From a bacterium (GTDB lineage Bacteria; Zhuqueibacterota; Zhuqueibacteria; Residuimicrobiales; Krinioviventaceae): a stretch of 64,000 bases of DNA. Location: contig CAXXMD010000002.1 in the NCBI GenBank assembly GCA_963675755.2, positions 1,856,001-1,920,000 on the forward strand, read 5' to 3'. The notes beneath the pieces are model-generated. The model was not told the origin of the DNA. It saw only the letters and a program-made list of their open reading frames with translations, and did no database searches. A program made the position numbers and the translations under genes. This document shows positions 24,428-29,398 of the stretch, in pieces. The stretch's first letter is position 1; the number at the start of each line of letters is the position of its first letter.

Positions 24428-24847
24428 CTAAACATCTTTTCCCAACCGCATGCGCTGAGCCAGCACCTCAGCCCGTTTGCCCACCTGCCGGTGCCATACA
24501 CTGTTCAGCATTTCATCTGCAGCGATGTCAAAATCCTTTTTATACATAGCAGCAAGCATACGTTTAAAGCCTGAAAATCGTGTTTTGCCCAAGTTGAATA
24601 CCATTTCAACCAACACTTCCCTGCGGGTATCATCCAAATCGTCAAATGCGGGGACAATGGAGCGTACATCCCGTAACGCGGTCTCGATATCCTCCGCAAG
24701 TATGTGCTCAATCACAGCATCGGACAAGGGCCGGGCTTCCAGATTATGCCCGTACCCGATGGTCCAGATGCCCAACGGGTCCTGATATGCGGTATTGCGC
24801 TTGCCTTCATGATTTTTAATGGATTGTATCAAATTTTGCATATTCAT
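24428..24847 (-). CDS. Phage lysozyme (GH24/T4-like endolysin)
   Basis: HEGKRNTAYQDPLGIWTIGYGHNL (E-x8-D-x5-T triad); MVFNLG; AADEMLNSVWHRQVGKRA. Confidence 0.9.
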   Translation of the reverse strand: MNMQNLIQSIKNHEGKRNTAYQDPLGIWTIGYGHNLEARPLSDAVIEHILAEDIETALRDVRSIVPAFDDLDDTRREVLVEMVFNLGKTRFSGFKRMLAAMYKKDFDIAADEMLNSVWHRQVGKRAEVLAQRMRLGKDV

Positions 24848-25029
24848 ACTGTTCTCCTCAATTTAACCACAGATAAACGCAGATTAACATTAAAGTATTT
24901 AATTTATGTATTTTTCTGCAAATGTCTGATTTTGAGTCAATCTTTAGTTTAGTATTTGTAAAACCGGGAACCTAGAGCATTCCCTAACGTTCAATATTAT
25001 GAGGTTTCATGTTGCCCTCCTCTCCAAAT

Positions 25030-25066
25030 ATCGCCCACCTGAGTGACGGCTATTCAGGTGGGTGAT
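25030..25066. repeat. Imperfect hairpin between small HTH gene and lysozyme
   Basis: ATCGCCCACCTGAGT...ATTCAGGTGGGTGAT. Confidence 0.55.
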
Positions 25067-25071
25067 TTGGT

Positions 25072-25260
25072 TTAGTGCCTGCCGTAATAAATATCTTCCA
25101 GTGTTGATGGTGCGTAACCGGTTTCATCCGACAGATCCATACAAGCTTGCTTGACATAACTTCGAACTCCGGCGTTCCATAATCTGACTGCATGATCATA
25201 CACCCTGCGGCGGATTGCATTATGCCGCTTTACCGTACTCTTTCTCTTTGGCATCGTCAT
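25072..25260 (-). CDS. Small basic protein with HTH-like C-terminus
   Basis: ATGA overlap with the TerL stop; 'ACMDLSDETGYAPSTLEDIYY' HTH-like pattern. Confidence 0.55.
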   Translation of the reverse strand: MTMPKRKSTVKRHNAIRRRVYDHAVRLWNAGVRSYVKQACMDLSDETGYAPSTLEDIYYGRH

Positions 25261-26732
25261 CTCCCTTTGCTGATCCAGAACATACCTGTCCAATTGTCGT
25301 TTGTGTGTGGGTAAAATGTATTCAATACAGCATCCAGCCGGTCCGGCGAACGTCCCAGCCGGGTGATGATCTTTTCCTTGCTTTCGATCTGGATTTTCCC
25401 ATTCGATTGTACCACATATTGCGGAGCAGTAATTTCCTGCAGTAATGCGTCATCCGGGGGTAACGCCAGTTTTATCTCTCCGGCAGGGTCCAAAGCATCC
25501 CGCAATGCCCAGTGCAGCCAAGCGCGCATATTCACAAACTGACGCTCTCCTGTTACATCGCCAAGATCCTGCGCGGATTCCGATCCTTTCACACTGACAG
25601 CATTTACATTCTGCTCCTTTAATCGCGCGTAGACACCGGCCCCCTCACCGATCGTATCAACAAACGCAGTATCTTCATCCACCCGCAACTCATTACAAAT
25701 CCGCCCCGATACCGCCATCGCATCGAGCTTGGAATATACCGAAATGCTTTCAATCACCTGTTCATATCGTCTTGCAAAACAGGTCGAGTCCCTTCCCATA
25801 CCAGCCACATCAACACCCAAACGCATAAAGCCCTGCTTGCGCTCGGTTTCATTCATCTGCCGCCAACGCTGCTGCGCGGCCTCTACCCAGGCAACAGGTA
25901 TGAGCTGTCCCTCTGCTTCTTTGGGAAACTCACCCAGCACCTTGACCCTGAATAAATCGTTGGGACGATACCACTGCCCCTTGAAAGGAAAATCCATCAT
26001 TCCCGCATCGATTTCATCAGCAGAGATTTTACGGCACCAGGATTCAACCCGCTCTTTTACCCAGGTATAATCCACCTGACCGGGTACCAGTGTTTTACGG
26101 GCACGCACATTTACCGCATTCAAACTGCTCAGCTTGAATTTGCTGTACAAGGGACTGGTTACGCTTTTATACGCCTCCCCCGAGGTCCGCACCGGATTAA
26201 AGATAAGCAGCAGTCGCGAGTCGCCGGTCAGCAATCCCTCAATAGCTTCAAATGTCTCCTCCGCCAGACCGCTGGCTTCGGTTACCACCACCAAAATATT
26301 GGGCGAGTGGTACCCGGTCCACGATTCCACTGCCTTGTCCCCGGCTTTAAATCCCTCCAGAAACCAATTGGGCTCACCGTCAAACTTTATTCGGGTTGCG
26401 GTTACGCGTCCCCCCAGCGGTACCAGTGCATTTTTGTGCAGCCTGCCAATCTCAGTCATCATAATGGATGTTACCTGACGCTGTGTAGGCGCGGTATTGA
26501 TAACCTTGGATGGATAATGCAAATATAGAAAACATAGCGAAGCCACTGCCGCGGTAAAATCTTTGCCGCGGGCATGTCCCGAACGTACAGAAACACGGCG
26601 CCCATGCTGCAAGGCGCTGATAATCCTTCGCTGCTGCCGGTCCAATCGCACCCCCAGAATCTCTCGCACAAAGGCGTTCCAGTCCTGCTGATAGTGATGA
26701 AATAGTGCCCGGTCCTTATCCTCTATCCGCAT
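25257..26732 (-). CDS. Phage terminase large subunit
   Basis: RQQ motif; Walker A RSGHARGKDF; TAPT..Q; Walker B variant VVVTEASG; IFNP; RVKVLGEFP; nuclease LGVDVA.MGRD; GRSPDRLDA. Confidence 0.9.
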   Translation of the reverse strand: MRIEDKDRALFHHYQQDWNAFVREILGVRLDRQQRRIISALQHGRRVSVRSGHARGKDFTAAVASLCFLYLHYPSKVINTAPTQRQVTSIMMTEIGRLHKNALVPLGGRVTATRIKFDGEPNWFLEGFKAGDKAVESWTGYHSPNILVVVTEASGLAEETFEAIEGLLTGDSRLLLIFNPVRTSGEAYKSVTSPLYSKFKLSSLNAVNVRARKTLVPGQVDYTWVKERVESWCRKISADEIDAGMMDFPFKGQWYRPNDLFRVKVLGEFPKEAEGQLIPVAWVEAAQQRWRQMNETERKQGFMRLGVDVAGMGRDSTCFARRYEQVIESISVYSKLDAMAVSGRICNELRVDEDTAFVDTIGEGAGVYARLKEQNVNAVSVKGSESAQDLGDVTGERQFVNMRAWLHWALRDALDPAGEIKLALPPDDALLQEITAPQYVVQSNGKIQIESKEKIITRLGRSPDRLDAVLNTFYPHTNDNWTGMFWISKGR

Positions 26733-27582: not shown

Positions 27583-28524
27583 TTATCCTCTTTTTAAAAC
27601 AAAACGCCGACTGCCGGGGCGGCTTTCGGTATAGGCATTGTACAATGACGGGAAATCCTGTTTAAAACGTTGATTATCAAATCGCACACTGTCTTTACTT
27701 TGACGCCAGGTTACTAGCGCATCATCCCCATCTTTGAGCACCGACGCGTCTTTCATCAACAATTTAATTTGCTGCTCAAGATCAGATTTTTGGGAGCCAA
27801 GTTCAGCCAATTGACGGGTTACATCTGTCAGCCTCTCCAATGTTTCAAAAGTGGTATCATCTACCTGTACACACTTTTCAGGATTTACCCTGGGCCAGAG
27901 CGTACGGATATCACTCTCATTGCTGGGTTCGGGAGGCACTCTTTTTTCAACATGATTGTGCCAGAAATCCAGCAATTGCTCCCTCATTAACGCAATGTAT
28001 TCCGCATCATACACAACCGGAATATCCTTGAGATCATACCCATCCACCAGCACGGCCACTCGTCCCCACTTGTGACCGGTCACATGCAGATAGTGCATGA
28101 TCTGACAATAGGTATCCGGCGGCAGGCCATTATCCTCCCAGCGTTTGAAATTGAACCCGGAAGTGGTCTTGACTTCCAAAACTCCGGCCCCCCGGTCATC
28201 ATTCGTTGCCGAGATCAACCGGTCGATATTTGCCAATAACACCGGATATTGTGAATGAAAACGCACCTTGTTATCCCGCCTGACTTTGCATCCATTCTCC
28301 AATGCCCACCACTGCGCTACCACATCCTCTAACAAACGCCCGGCTTTCATGCGAGCGTTTTCCTGAACGGGTTTGGATTGACCGATTTTCTCCAAATACA
28401 CATCCACCGCAGTTTTGTAAGGAGACAATCCCAAAATAGCGGCGACATCCGTTCCGCCAATGCCTGTGCGACGTACTTTTAGCCAGGATTCTTTGTTCAT
28501 TGATACTGTTGAAAGATAAGCCAT
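27583..28524 (-). CDS. YqaJ viral recombinase / lambda-exonuclease family nuclease
   Basis: WLKVRRTGIGGTDVAAILGLSPYKT; GRLLE; LANIDR; LEVKT; Y.Q..HYL.VTG; C-terminal SRRF. Confidence 0.9.
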   Translation of the reverse strand: MAYLSTVSMNKESWLKVRRTGIGGTDVAAILGLSPYKTAVDVYLEKIGQSKPVQENARMKAGRLLEDVVAQWWALENGCKVRRDNKVRFHSQYPVLLANIDRLISATNDDRGAGVLEVKTTSGFNFKRWEDNGLPPDTYCQIMHYLHVTGHKWGRVAVLVDGYDLKDIPVVYDAEYIALMREQLLDFWHNHVEKRVPPEPSNESDIRTLWPRVNPEKCVQVDDTTFETLERLTDVTRQLAELGSQKSDLEQQIKLLMKDASVLKDGDDALVTWRQSKDSVRFDNQRFKQDFPSLYNAYTESRPGSRRFVLKRG

Positions 28525-28576
28525 ATACACCCCTTTTCCGGGCAGTGCCTGTAAACCTCCCCAAACACTCCCAATA

Positions 28577-28636
28577 GTTAATAAAAGTTTATATTAGTTT
28601 CTAAATTAACTTAAACAAAGTTAAACTTTTATTAAC
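28577..28636. promoter_or_regulatory. Candidate repressor operator (perfect 15-bp inverted repeat) in divergent promoter region
   Basis: GTTAATAAAAGTTTA (28577-28591) / TAAACTTTTATTAAC (28622-28636); overlapping TTAACTT-N5-AAGTTAA at 28606-28624. Confidence 0.55.
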
Positions 28637-28711
28637 AAAAGTCAAGTTAAATTTTTATTAGTTTATGTTTTTTTTGCTTTGTTTTAGGATGGAAATACTG
28701 TATATTTAGAT

Positions 28712-29398
28712 ATGAAAAACATTGCAAAGGAAATACAGGCTATTCTGGATCAGGATCTGATCAGCGTTGAAGAACTGGCAGAGCGCACGGGCCTGACTGT
28801 ACCGGGATTAAAAAAAATTCTGAATGGCCAAACCTCCAGCGTACAGCGTTCCACCATTCGCAAGATTGCTGACGGGACCGGACGCGTGGCCAGAATAGAA
28901 GGTGACACGGTTACCTTTACCCCGGACCTGCCCTCTACGGACAATGTCCCTCCTTTGGAAAGTAATGATAACGCCCTGCCCATTGTTCAGCACGAACGGG
29001 AAGTACCGCATTTCAACGTAGAAGCCGGCGCCGGCATTGGCCAGGCGGTTGCGTCTGAACATATTTCCAGCTATACCAAAATCTTTCCCGGCGTGCACCC
29101 ATCTGTCCAGTTTACGGTTCGCGCCAAAGGCGACAGTATGCAGCTTGCCGGCATAAATGATGGCGATCTGCTATTTGTCACACCCGTAACCGACGCGCGT
29201 ACGGTAAAAAACGGCGCCATTGTGATTGTGGCGGATGAAGATGGCGATCTGCTGGTCAAAATTTTTCAGCGCGAAGGCGATACCATTATGCTGTTTTCCG
29301 CGTCACCGCAATACCGTCCCATTATCAAATCCGCCGACCAGGTACGAATCATTGGCCGCGTCATCCACAGCAGTCATTTAAATACATTCGAGTTGTAA
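28712..29398 (+). CDS. CI/LexA-like repressor (XRE HTH + S24 peptidase)
   Basis: SVEELAERTGLTVPGLKKIL HTH; VEAG cleavage-site motif; KGDSM catalytic Ser; LLVK catalytic Lys; RIIGRV. Confidence 0.9.
   Translation: MKNIAKEIQAILDQDLISVEELAERTGLTVPGLKKILNGQTSSVQRSTIRKIADGTGRVARIEGDTVTFTPDLPSTDNVPPLESNDNALPIVQHEREVPHFNVEAGAGIGQAVASEHISSYTKIFPGVHPSVQFTVRAKGDSMQLAGINDGDLLFVTPVTDARTVKNGAIVIVADEDGDLLVKIFQREGDTIMLFSASPQYRPIIKSADQVRIIGRVIHSSHLNTFEL

Follow-up and report, generated by a model that had tools for sequence, protein, structure and literature searches.

An uncultivated bacterium of the family Krinioviventaceae carries, within the 64,000-nucleotide stretch of DNA analysed here (assembly GCA_963675755.2, contig CAXXMD010000002.1, positions 1,856,001 to 1,920,000; hereafter the window), a cassette of seven genes at 24428-29398 that encodes, among other products, a CI-like repressor, an exonuclease, a terminase and a lysozyme. 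We favour, with moderate confidence, the interpretation that this cassette forms one half, responsible for control, packaging and lysis, of a domesticated, multi-locus and vertically inherited element, similar to a gene transfer agent (GTA) or to the PBSX element, which derives from the common ancestor of two sister genera. The other half would be a cluster of portal, capsid and tail-region genes located 142 kb away, and comparison of the sequences indicates that the cassette and this head-tail cluster are probably two parts of one domesticated particle-making system. Transfer of DNA by the resulting particles is much less secure than the conclusion that the two loci belong together.

A seven-gene cassette between host genes

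The cassette consists of seven uninterrupted open reading frames (ORFs). A CI-like repressor gene on the plus strand diverges from six minus-strand genes in the order yqaJ, a gene for an orphan (hypothetical) protein, a terS-like gene, terL, a small ORF and a lysozyme gene, with 181 nt separating the repressor gene from yqaJ. This arrangement agrees at every coordinate with the original prediction, which was made from the letters of the window. Reading of the junctions also upheld its proposal that four of the genes are coupled by overlaps: the orphan gene and terS share 1 nt, terS and terL share 17 nt, and the terL stop overlaps an internal ATG of the small ORF as ATGA. Five of the seven assignments (yqaJ, terL, lysozyme, repressor and terS-like) were backed by Pfam and PHROGs.

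In what follows, G000 denotes the genome that holds the window, G001 that of its sister species and G014 that of a member of a sister genus. The cassette is present in a single copy in the 6.48-Mb, three-contig G000 assembly, and host genes whose products carry type IX secretion sorting domains bound the 5-kb unit on both sides. Its genes have a GC content of 47-52%, compared with 33-46% in four of the five flanking host genes and 26-37% between genes. No tRNA gene was found in the window. A 34-kb Logan contig, probably from the same source sample, covers positions 23300-30900 with 0 differences, and a 23.5-kb contig from a different study, about 9% diverged, covers the cassette and both flanks. 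Since independent contigs span the cassette junctions, the arrangement cannot be put down to a collapse of the assembly, a possibility that had been raised with the prediction.

No cro, RecT, replication, portal, capsid, tail, holin or integrase domain was detected in the cassette and its four flanking host ORFs. The features of an intact temperate prophage (a contiguous genome with integrase, att sites and replication, structural and lysis modules) are not found together at the cassette.

A head-tail cluster of the same phage lineage

The original prediction had noted the absence of particle and integrase genes. This holds for the cassette locus but not for portal, capsid and tail genes in the genome as a whole. 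A full prophage of the same lineage is present in the sister species (loci L020 and L050, G001:C1:2840001-2878900) and serves as a reference for what was lost. When its ORFs were used as queries against G000, they matched G000:C2:2023800-2029100, 142 kb from the cassette, with the portal at 43% identity, the capsid at 59% and four more at 35-54%. The sole terL match of these queries in G000 was the cassette terL. In the prophage itself, which encodes a terL, a portal, a capsid, a 1559-aa tape measure and a 1006-aa protein with LVIVD repeats and has a DNA methyltransferase gene directly upstream of terL, the terL gene (58% identical to that of the cassette) abuts the portal gene, and the capsid gene and the four further homologues of cluster proteins follow. 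The metagenome contig L070 likewise carries a terL of 55% identity and then a portal of this type at 41%. From the adjacency of terL and portal in both the prophage and this contig, it follows that the cassette terL and the distant portal descend from neighbours.

The complete head-tail cluster occupies G000:C2:2017981-2029144, lies on one strand and has a GC content of 41-51%. The portal gene (phrog_30703, E 1.6e-66) comes first and is followed by a poorly conserved 87-aa ORF, which contains stops in G001, and by genes for 390-aa and 149-aa proteins. The HK97 capsid gene (PF05065; phrog_3922, E 1.8e-53) stands next, then genes for three connector-sized proteins, a 269-aa protein and a 57-aa ORF, and the order ends with genes for proteins of 127, 1002 (with LVIVD repeats), 127 and 91 aa. 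No terminase, lysis or regulator gene was recognised in the cluster. Genome-wide, PF05065 matched this capsid alone, and PF03237, PF03354 and PF04860 gave no matches in G000. Searches of the genome with phrog_2, PF03237 and PF03354 found no second terminase, the cassette terL being the sole one detected; two further phrog_2 matches were weak and correspond to a UvrD helicase and to PhoH. On the strength of these genome-wide family searches, G000 has one terminase and one capsid-portal set, in separate places. No integrase or replication domain was found when the seven cassette ORFs, four flanking ORFs and 12 cluster ORFs were scanned, and, judged from gene content, neither locus looks autonomous.

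These results support the earlier view of the cassette as a domesticated unit. Three options had been offered for its role, and the one that gained direct support is a split, GTA-like module that uses heads encoded elsewhere: the cluster was found without a terminase, belongs to the same phage lineage and is conserved together with the cassette. The other two, a satellite-like hijacker of helper capsids and a suicide cassette, are weighed below as a rival explanation.

Conservation and selection at both loci

In G001 the seven cassette genes occur in identical order at the syntenic site, between the same host genes and with no full prophage there, and their products are 88-99% identical at the amino acid level (81-95% for the flanking genes). 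In G014 the seven genes again stand in identical order with all frames open, at 50-73% identity and next to different neighbouring genes; synonymous sites are saturated between G000 and G014. A 7-kb contig of the viral collection IMG/VR (L114) starts within the orphan gene region, carries the orphan, terS, terL (71%), small-protein and lysozyme genes, and then continues as DNA of 32-37% GC. Among the 46 loci examined (43 from metagenomes and 3 from a genome scan), the cassette occurs only in the metagenome contig L069, which repeats the G014 arrangement. Of the 19 genomes of the family that were compared, G000, G001 and G014 have a cassette-type terL; a further genome, G002, has only a partial terL match of 41% identity, on a contig without any other cassette gene. 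The cassette is thus not strain-specific, contrary to one of the original doubts. On an RpoB tree of 20 genomes, the two cassette-bearing genera are sisters with 100/99 support, and the simplest history suggested by this distribution is one acquisition in their common ancestor.

All three cassette-bearing genomes also possess the head-tail genes, and the divergence of the two loci is similar: identities to G001 and G014 are 94.5% and 72% for terL, 98% and 73% for the portal, and 98% and 83% for the capsid. The cluster is syntenic in G001 (77-98% identity for the clearly conserved genes, 56% for the 87-aa ORF and 63% for the 57-aa ORF) and collinear in another relative, G017. In G014 it is rearranged over three contigs: the portal and two small ORFs sit by themselves in the interior of one of 217 kb, the capsid block lies at the end of a second, and a 998-aa gene stands near the end of a third. 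The spacing of the two loci is 142 kb in G000 and about 110 kb in G001, and in G014 they are on different contigs.

We then estimated dN/dS between G000 and G001 by the Nei-Gojobori method. The cassette values were 0.009 for cI, 0.041 for terS, 0.057 for yqaJ, 0.057 for the small protein, 0.068 for terL and 0.24 for the lysozyme, at dS 0.28-0.51; six flanking host genes gave dN/dS of 0.06-0.20 at dS 0.29-0.73. The repressor gene, with 99% identity to G001, is therefore the most constrained gene of the cassette, and the lysozyme gene is the least constrained. For the orphan gene no value could be obtained from this pair, as a stop codon preceding its true start disrupted the alignment; its protein is 96.5% identical in G001, and its dN/dS against G014 is 0.15. 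Ten cluster genes gave 0.017-0.37, the most conserved being the capsid (0.017) and the portal (0.028), with 0.16 for the 1002-aa protein. Across all 17 scored genes of the two loci, dN/dS ranges from 0.009 to 0.37 at dS values similar to those of flanking host genes. Relaxed selection, which had been named as a possible objection, does not describe the cassette: its six scored genes stand at 0.009-0.24 and the G014 ORFs are open.

These data bear on the idea that a single decaying prophage, broken up by a rearrangement, left the two loci as inert remnants that have yet to erode. Both do come from one phage lineage, and RecT, the replication genes, the integrase and the tape measure have been lost. 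However, some 18 ORFs remain intact at dS 0.1-0.7 between the species, and also between genera whose synonymous sites are saturated, and every scored dN/dS is well below 1. The gene set moreover recurs in three diverged lineages (terL 71-72%), and the pieces in G014 have been rearranged further, with each one intact. Neutral decay is excluded by the selection data, and we consider the inert-remnant explanation very improbable.

Selection could also be acting on each gene for its own sake. The repressor would then provide superinfection immunity and the lysozyme wall turnover or autolysis, the terminase would persist through operon linkage, and the head-tail cluster would either yield a different product or be a remnant in its own right. 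That cI is by far the most constrained gene is what immunity would lead one to expect. The lysozyme gene, the least constrained, is split from the operon by a hairpin and T-run, and the loss of the tape measure suggests partial decay. Against this, dN/dS for terL, terS, yqaJ and the small-protein gene is 0.04-0.07, on a par with the best-conserved of the flanking host genes, and all four stay open across saturated synonymous divergence, where linkage alone would not stop frameshifts. The portal and capsid genes are, in addition, the most conserved of the second locus. We regard separate benefits as an unlikely explanation of the whole, and continue to favour the reading of the two loci as parts of one element.

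Genes of the cassette

Catalytic motifs had been described as retained, and the residues concerned are visible in the translations of the repressor, YqaJ and the lysozyme; terL shows 259 invariant columns in alignment with three homologues, a prophage TerL among them. The 228-aa repressor (28712-29398, plus strand) matches HTH_3/HTH_26 and Peptidase_S24 (E 7.7e-22) as well as phrog_4 (E 4e-28). Read from its sequence only, it has the features of LexA/CI-type S24 proteins, namely an N-terminal helix-turn-helix (HTH), the Ala-Gly pair, the catalytic serine in GDSM and the lysine in VK. The only other S24 protein found in G000 is UmuD-like (G000:C2:2327312-2327785), and a 424-aa UmuC-like polymerase comes after it. 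No further HTH-S24 (LexA-like) protein emerged when G000 was searched by tblastn with the CI-like protein.

The first gene of the leftward operon, yqaJ (27583-28530, minus strand), encodes a 315-aa 5'-3' exonuclease of the YqaJ/lambda-Exo type (PF09588, E 2.3e-33; phrog_434, E 1.1e-89), in whose translation the PD-(D/E)xK-like D...ExK is visible. It has no RecT partner. In a prophage of another genus (G004), a 46%-identical YqaJ is followed directly by RecT (PF03837, E 5e-48), and the orphan protein occupies the cassette slot where related phages have RecT. Elsewhere in G000, RecT yielded one marginal match of 26.5 bits inside an 800-aa frame on contig C1. The orphan gene (27156-27437, minus strand, within an ORF spanning 27156-27503) encodes about 93-95 aa rather than 115, because the N-terminal extension has a stop in the sister species. 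Its product has the invariant core RPAEMDDRPGE..NRWCWVPP, no Pfam, PHROG or PADLOC match and no usable match in the protein atlas. It forms 5 clusters among 5.8 billion proteins and has 4 representatives at E <= 0.001 among 1.84 billion, and pattern scans of 185,579 species genomes located it in G001 and G014 only.

The terS-like gene (26716-27156, minus strand) encodes a 146-aa small terminase-like protein that matches HTH_28, HTH_23 and Terminase_5, the last at 22.6 bits against a cut-off of 20.3, and has 19 homologues. Its AlphaFold2 model (predicted local distance difference test score, pLDDT, 72) contains an N-terminal HTH, a helix of 48 residues (33-80) and a second helix at 101-118, and Foldseek ranked the small terminase of phage G20c first, at a non-significant E of 0.09. 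A terS homologue lies 3.5 kb upstream of terL in the G001 prophage, with a methyltransferase gene and small ORFs between them. The large terminase subunit, TerL (25257-26732, minus strand, 491 aa), comprises an ATPase and an RNase-H-like nuclease and matches phrog_2 (E 1.3e-30). It has matches in 465 phage records, the best at 34.7% identity, and 9 of the 20 rows listed are annotated as terminase large subunit; its nuclease part can be aligned with a terminase nuclease domain of solved structure (PDB 8dkr).

One of the two weak phrog_2 matches is the helicase of a separate gene run (L115, G000:C3:588001-607000), which resembles a defence or restriction island. On one strand it combines genes for a C5 DNA methylase and a UvrD-like helicase with those for a 1086-aa DEAD/Helicase_C protein and a further protein that has an MrfA Zn-binding domain.

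The small ORF had been described as a small HTH gene. The gene is present, at 25072-25260 on the minus strand (the ORF extends to a TTG at 25293), and its product is a basic protein of 62 aa predicted to form a three-helix bundle; an HTH is only a compatible fold for the model. The ATG at 25260 is the most likely start, given the ATGA overlap, the GGGAG motif upstream and the homologue alignments that begin there. Homologues occur in G001, G014 and L114, and as a 64-aa protein in the G001 prophage. The AlphaFold2 model (pLDDT 85) shows three helices, and its best Foldseek rows are DNA-binding subdomains of Mu transposase and TnpE, which are non-significant at E > 1; with neither this model nor the terS-like one did Foldseek return a row at E <= 0.001. 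The protein atlas gave only leads below 0.9. On the basis of its modelled fold, we consider the small protein a candidate DNA-binding regulator.

The last gene of the leftward order encodes a 139-aa GH24 (T4-type) lysozyme (24428-24847, minus strand; PF00959, E 2.8e-17; phrog_7 endolysin, E 2.9e-25). The catalytic-motif residues Glu, Asp and Thr can be seen in its sequence, and it has no signal peptide or transmembrane (TM) segment. The gene is single-copy in G000, and its product is 88% identical in G001 and 60% identical in G014. In L114, two partial extra copies of its 3' part (4675-4800 and 5462-5608) lie downstream of the intact cassette lysozyme gene.

Two further observations concern the proteins around the loci. 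A 1098-aa protein encoded at 18098-21394 of the window (minus strand) carries a type IX secretion sorting domain together with Binary_toxB (PA-type Ca-binding, E 2e-12) and Laminin_G_3 matches. LVIVD beta-propeller repeats are common to the host surface protein that adjoins the cassette (21829-24303, plus strand) and the 1002-aa protein of the distant cluster (G000:C2:2018937-2021945); the G001 prophage homologue of the latter matches the host surface protein weakly, at 24% identity over 283 aa.

Control regions and non-coding elements

The divergent control region at 28531-28711 contains an inverted repeat (28577-28600 and 28613-28636) with 24-nt arms that are 88% complementary. The repeat overlaps a candidate leftward promoter on the minus strand, made up of TTG (28645-28643), a 19-nt spacer and TAACTTTG (28623-28616), which we take to be a promoter from its resemblance to the consensus. 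Exact matches to the 15-nt operator half-site number two in G000, both in this region. The layout is kept in G001, and G014 has a different palindrome in the same place.

A second element is a conserved non-coding block of about 110 nt in the spacer between the small-protein and lysozyme genes (24958-25071, minus strand), with 55 invariant columns across four lineages. It is better conserved than the adjoining proteins, which are only 50-73% identical across the same lineages. The block is made up of a GC-rich hairpin (25030-25066), the invariant GAGGAGGGCA..ATG..AAC (25004-25022) and then GGTTCC with a T-run. The GAGGAGGGCA..ATG portion resembles a ribosome-binding site without a conserved ORF, as the frame stops after 1-16 codons in three of the four lineages and is open in L114. 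Allowing 2 mismatches, the invariant block is unique in G000. Pairing in the hairpin appears, by eye, to be kept through changed bases; RNAalifold on the four sequences gave 0 pairs with double-sided change, from an alignment that misplaces a 3-nt gap. In Rfam neither the cassette nor the block has a match, the single row (L20 leader, E 0.91) being a chance match. From its anatomy and position, the block may be a terminator/antiterminator gate for lysozyme expression, or a packaging site.

We also considered a pair of 28-nt direct repeats (24860-24887 and 29412-29439, 86% identical) as att sites and rejected them as copies of a dispersed host repeat. The family has 21 copies in G000 at <=2 mismatches, and the repeats are missing from the matching spacers in G014 and L114. 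Dispersed host repeats of the CCACAGAT..CGCAGAT and CCACGGAT..CACGGAT types, with 21-48 genome copies, stand at 24860-24887, 29412-29439, 29533-29607 and 29765-29826, and two copies bracket most of the cassette in a way that mimics att sites.

At the distant locus, a near-palindrome, TGTGTAAnTTACCCAA, lies at G000:C2:2029208-2029223 (L024 14208-14223), upstream of the portal promoter and about 20 nt upstream of a promoter-like TA..TTTG box. It is identical and in register in 4/4 genomes from two genera, unique in G000, and kept at the isolated portal of G014. These properties make TGTGTAAnTTACCCAA a candidate activator site. In the DNA upstream of the portal, a tandem repeat array is all that precedes the host genes. 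An apparent 177-aa ORF at L024 14208-14741 (G000:C2:2029208-2029741), with 59% GC, corresponds to this array of tandem, hairpin-forming repeats of about 43 nt of the GGGCGGACCTGTGTGTCCGCCCC type, and the GGGCGGACCTGTGTGTCCGCCCC-type array has fewer copies in G001.

A possible mechanism

The arrangement of the two loci suggests how such an element might work. The CI-like repressor would bind the inverted repeat, which is seen to lie over the leftward promoter, and would keep yqaJ, the orphan gene, terS, terL and the small-protein gene silent. DNA damage would lead to RecA-stimulated self-cleavage of the S24 domain and so to derepression of the operon, as the retained motifs and the host UmuD/UmuC suggest. 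Because the host has a UmuD/UmuC pair, RecA-stimulated S24 cleavage is probably available; induction by DNA damage is what we infer from the sequences. The conserved hairpin and T-run element upstream of the lysozyme gene may delay expression of the lysozyme. The portal-capsid-connector-tail operon, which has a conserved 15-bp palindrome ahead of what looks like its own promoter, would be activated in trans, and one might guess that the small three-helix protein is the activator. TerS and TerL would then fill capsids made by the distant cluster, presumably with host DNA, as no replicating phage genome exists, and cell lysis would be the final step. Since the tape measure is a stub, the particles would be expected to have a very short or defective tail, and delivery of DNA is the least certain step of the scheme.

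A further-reaching form of this model is that the element represents a new, damage-triggered, multi-locus GTA lineage in an uncultivated family with type IX secretion. Its motor, CI switch and lysin would act in trans on separate capsid and tail genes, its particles would be nearly tailless, and the orphan protein would have replaced RecT. We put this forward tentatively and regard it as rather doubtful in its entirety.

Evidence against a single system and the anti-phage alternative

Several observations weigh against cooperation of the two loci in making particles. The G001 prophage has, between its 268-aa and 127-aa genes, the 1559-aa tape measure gene (phrog_28, E 6.6e-40) and two chaperone-sized ORFs, and neither the tape measure nor the two chaperones occur in the cluster or elsewhere in G000. 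The 57-aa cluster ORF weakly resembles the last ~35 residues of the tape measure (E 0.003; 6e-4 in G014), and the tail-region genes are conserved in a cluster whose tape measure and chaperones have been reduced to this 57-aa stub. Because the tape measure has been deleted to such an extent, a working long tail is unlikely. No TM-bearing holin-like ORF was found at either locus. Among the public sequencing runs listed for the stretch, none was an RNA run. The two control regions have no sequence motif in common, the operator half-site and the portal palindrome each being confined to its own locus. The identity of terS rests on its position, weak Pfam matches and a non-significant fold match. 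The model, moreover, does not require YqaJ and the orphan protein.

The distribution of the loci raises similar doubts. G017 has a complete head-tail cluster, and neither terL nor yqaJ was found in this genome, which is 95% complete in 180 contigs; its one syntenic flank, which matches that of G014 over ~600 nt, is cut off by a contig edge 3.8 kb away. The head-tail cluster may thus persist without the cassette in G017. G005, which lies near G014 on the RpoB tree, shows neither locus. A phrog_2 search over five relatives missed the known G014 terL, which is 72% identical to the G000 terL that this family does detect. Its negatives for G017, G004 and G005 are therefore unreliable and we did not use them; searches of this kind call for a control. 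We regard the missing tape measure, the missing holin and the G017 case as real weaknesses.

Such uncoupling of the loci is what one would expect if the cassette alone were an anti-phage or hijacking module and the distant cluster functionally unrelated. After infection or DNA damage, TerS and TerL would cut DNA or package it into the capsids of an incoming related phage, YqaJ would degrade DNA, and early lysozyme action would kill the cell, by abortive infection or as satellite-like interference. Related temperate phages do occur in the family: the prophage of the sister species is one (terL 58%), and G004 has several related prophages, with portals of 45-51%, capsids of 38-49% and a YqaJ of 46% identity and no related terL detected. 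A suicide response would be a fitting use of a nuclease, a terminase and a lysin controlled by a self-cleaving repressor, and YqaJ without RecT, together with the orphan protein, would fit a role other than recombination. PADLOC-DB 2.0, on the other hand, returned no defence-system match, only generic HTH matches to the terS-like protein and one match at E 0.004 to cI. The satellite form of the explanation faces the lack of the integrase, att sites, replication or primase gene and mobility that characterise satellites of the phage-inducible chromosomal island (PICI) type, and the cassette has the same chromosomal position in two species. A mobile satellite is unlikely given that no integrase, att site or replication gene was found, that the flanking repeats are dispersed host repeats and that the site is syntenic between species. 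The anti-phage explanation also leaves unaccounted for why the only capsid and portal genes come from the lineage that usually neighbours this terL and are conserved in the same clade. We give it a low probability, and retain the interpretation of the two loci as halves of one domesticated element.

The cassette is informative under either outcome. As part of such an element it would be an intermediate in the dismantling of a prophage into a host-controlled device, a process that is poorly documented. In this state the CI/S24 switch would still control the terminase and lysin, the portal, capsid and tail genes stand elsewhere with their own promoter and palindrome, and one genus shows the portal separated again. 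Full prophage relatives, in the sister species and in several copies in another genus, allow the loss of RecT, the replication genes, the integrase and the tape measure to be read as steps. If the two loci cooperate, they offer a testable model for pairing of a terminase and a capsid in trans and for SOS-linked DNA release in poorly known bacteria. If they do not, the retention by selection of a terminase, an exonuclease and a lysin under a self-cleaving repressor would make the cassette a candidate suicide or defence module of a new kind.

Comparison with known systems

Like RcGTA and other GTAs of the Alphaproteobacteria, the proposed element places phage-derived head-tail genes in the host chromosome at multiple loci, is inherited vertically and does not self-propagate. 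Specifically, the portal, HK97 capsid, tail-region, terL and terS-like genes are host-encoded and phage-derived, the element is confined to two sister genera in which it evolves under purifying selection, no self-propagation module was found, and the genes are spread over separate loci. In RcGTA the terminase lies inside the head-tail cluster, whereas here it is 142 kb from the portal. RcGTA is controlled by the host regulators CtrA and GafA and by quorum sensing; here a CI/S24 switch has been retained. The host, too, is different, being an uncultivated non-alphaproteobacterium with neighbouring genes for type IX secretion sorting domains, and the protein families are unrelated. Several loci make up the RcGTA 'genome', and its lysis genes lie away from the structural cluster, as a published account describes it (PMC5026251). 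The FpGTA of Faecalibacterium, a GTA-like element proposed recently, falls outside the Alphaproteobacteria and has a short, podovirus-like tail, and very few GTAs are known outside the Alphaproteobacteria, according to another report (PMC12946183). FpGTA belongs to a different host phylum and has experimental packaging data; the likeness drawn here is one of description, not of genes. A third source names Bacteroidetes only as hosts of Salinibacter viruses, in a table (PMC7947584). A narrow literature search returned no paper on a terminase-repressor-lysin cassette split from its capsid genes.

PBSX and skin of Bacillus subtilis are damage-inducible defective prophages that package host DNA and lyse the producer. 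The present element resembles them in its repressor and its terminase, structural and lysis genes, and yqaJ, yqaS (terS) and yqaT (terL) of skin encode the same kinds of products as the cassette; several Clostridioides phage records among the terL matches label the neighbouring terS 'yqaS ... skin element'. PBSX and skin are, however, single contiguous clusters with a full tail, whereas this element occupies at least two loci and lacks RecT, replication genes and the tape measure, and its terL is about 30% identical to the PBSX/skin-type group. With phage-inducible chromosomal islands the cassette shares its small size, a repressor, its own small terminase and capsids encoded elsewhere. Satellites are mobile and have an integrase, att sites and a replication module; none of these three features was found here, the cassette occupies the same site in two species, and the capsids are encoded by the host. 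Taken together, these comparisons suggest a GTA-like or PBSX-like domesticated prophage that differs from RcGTA and PBSX in having its packaging and capsid genes at separate loci.

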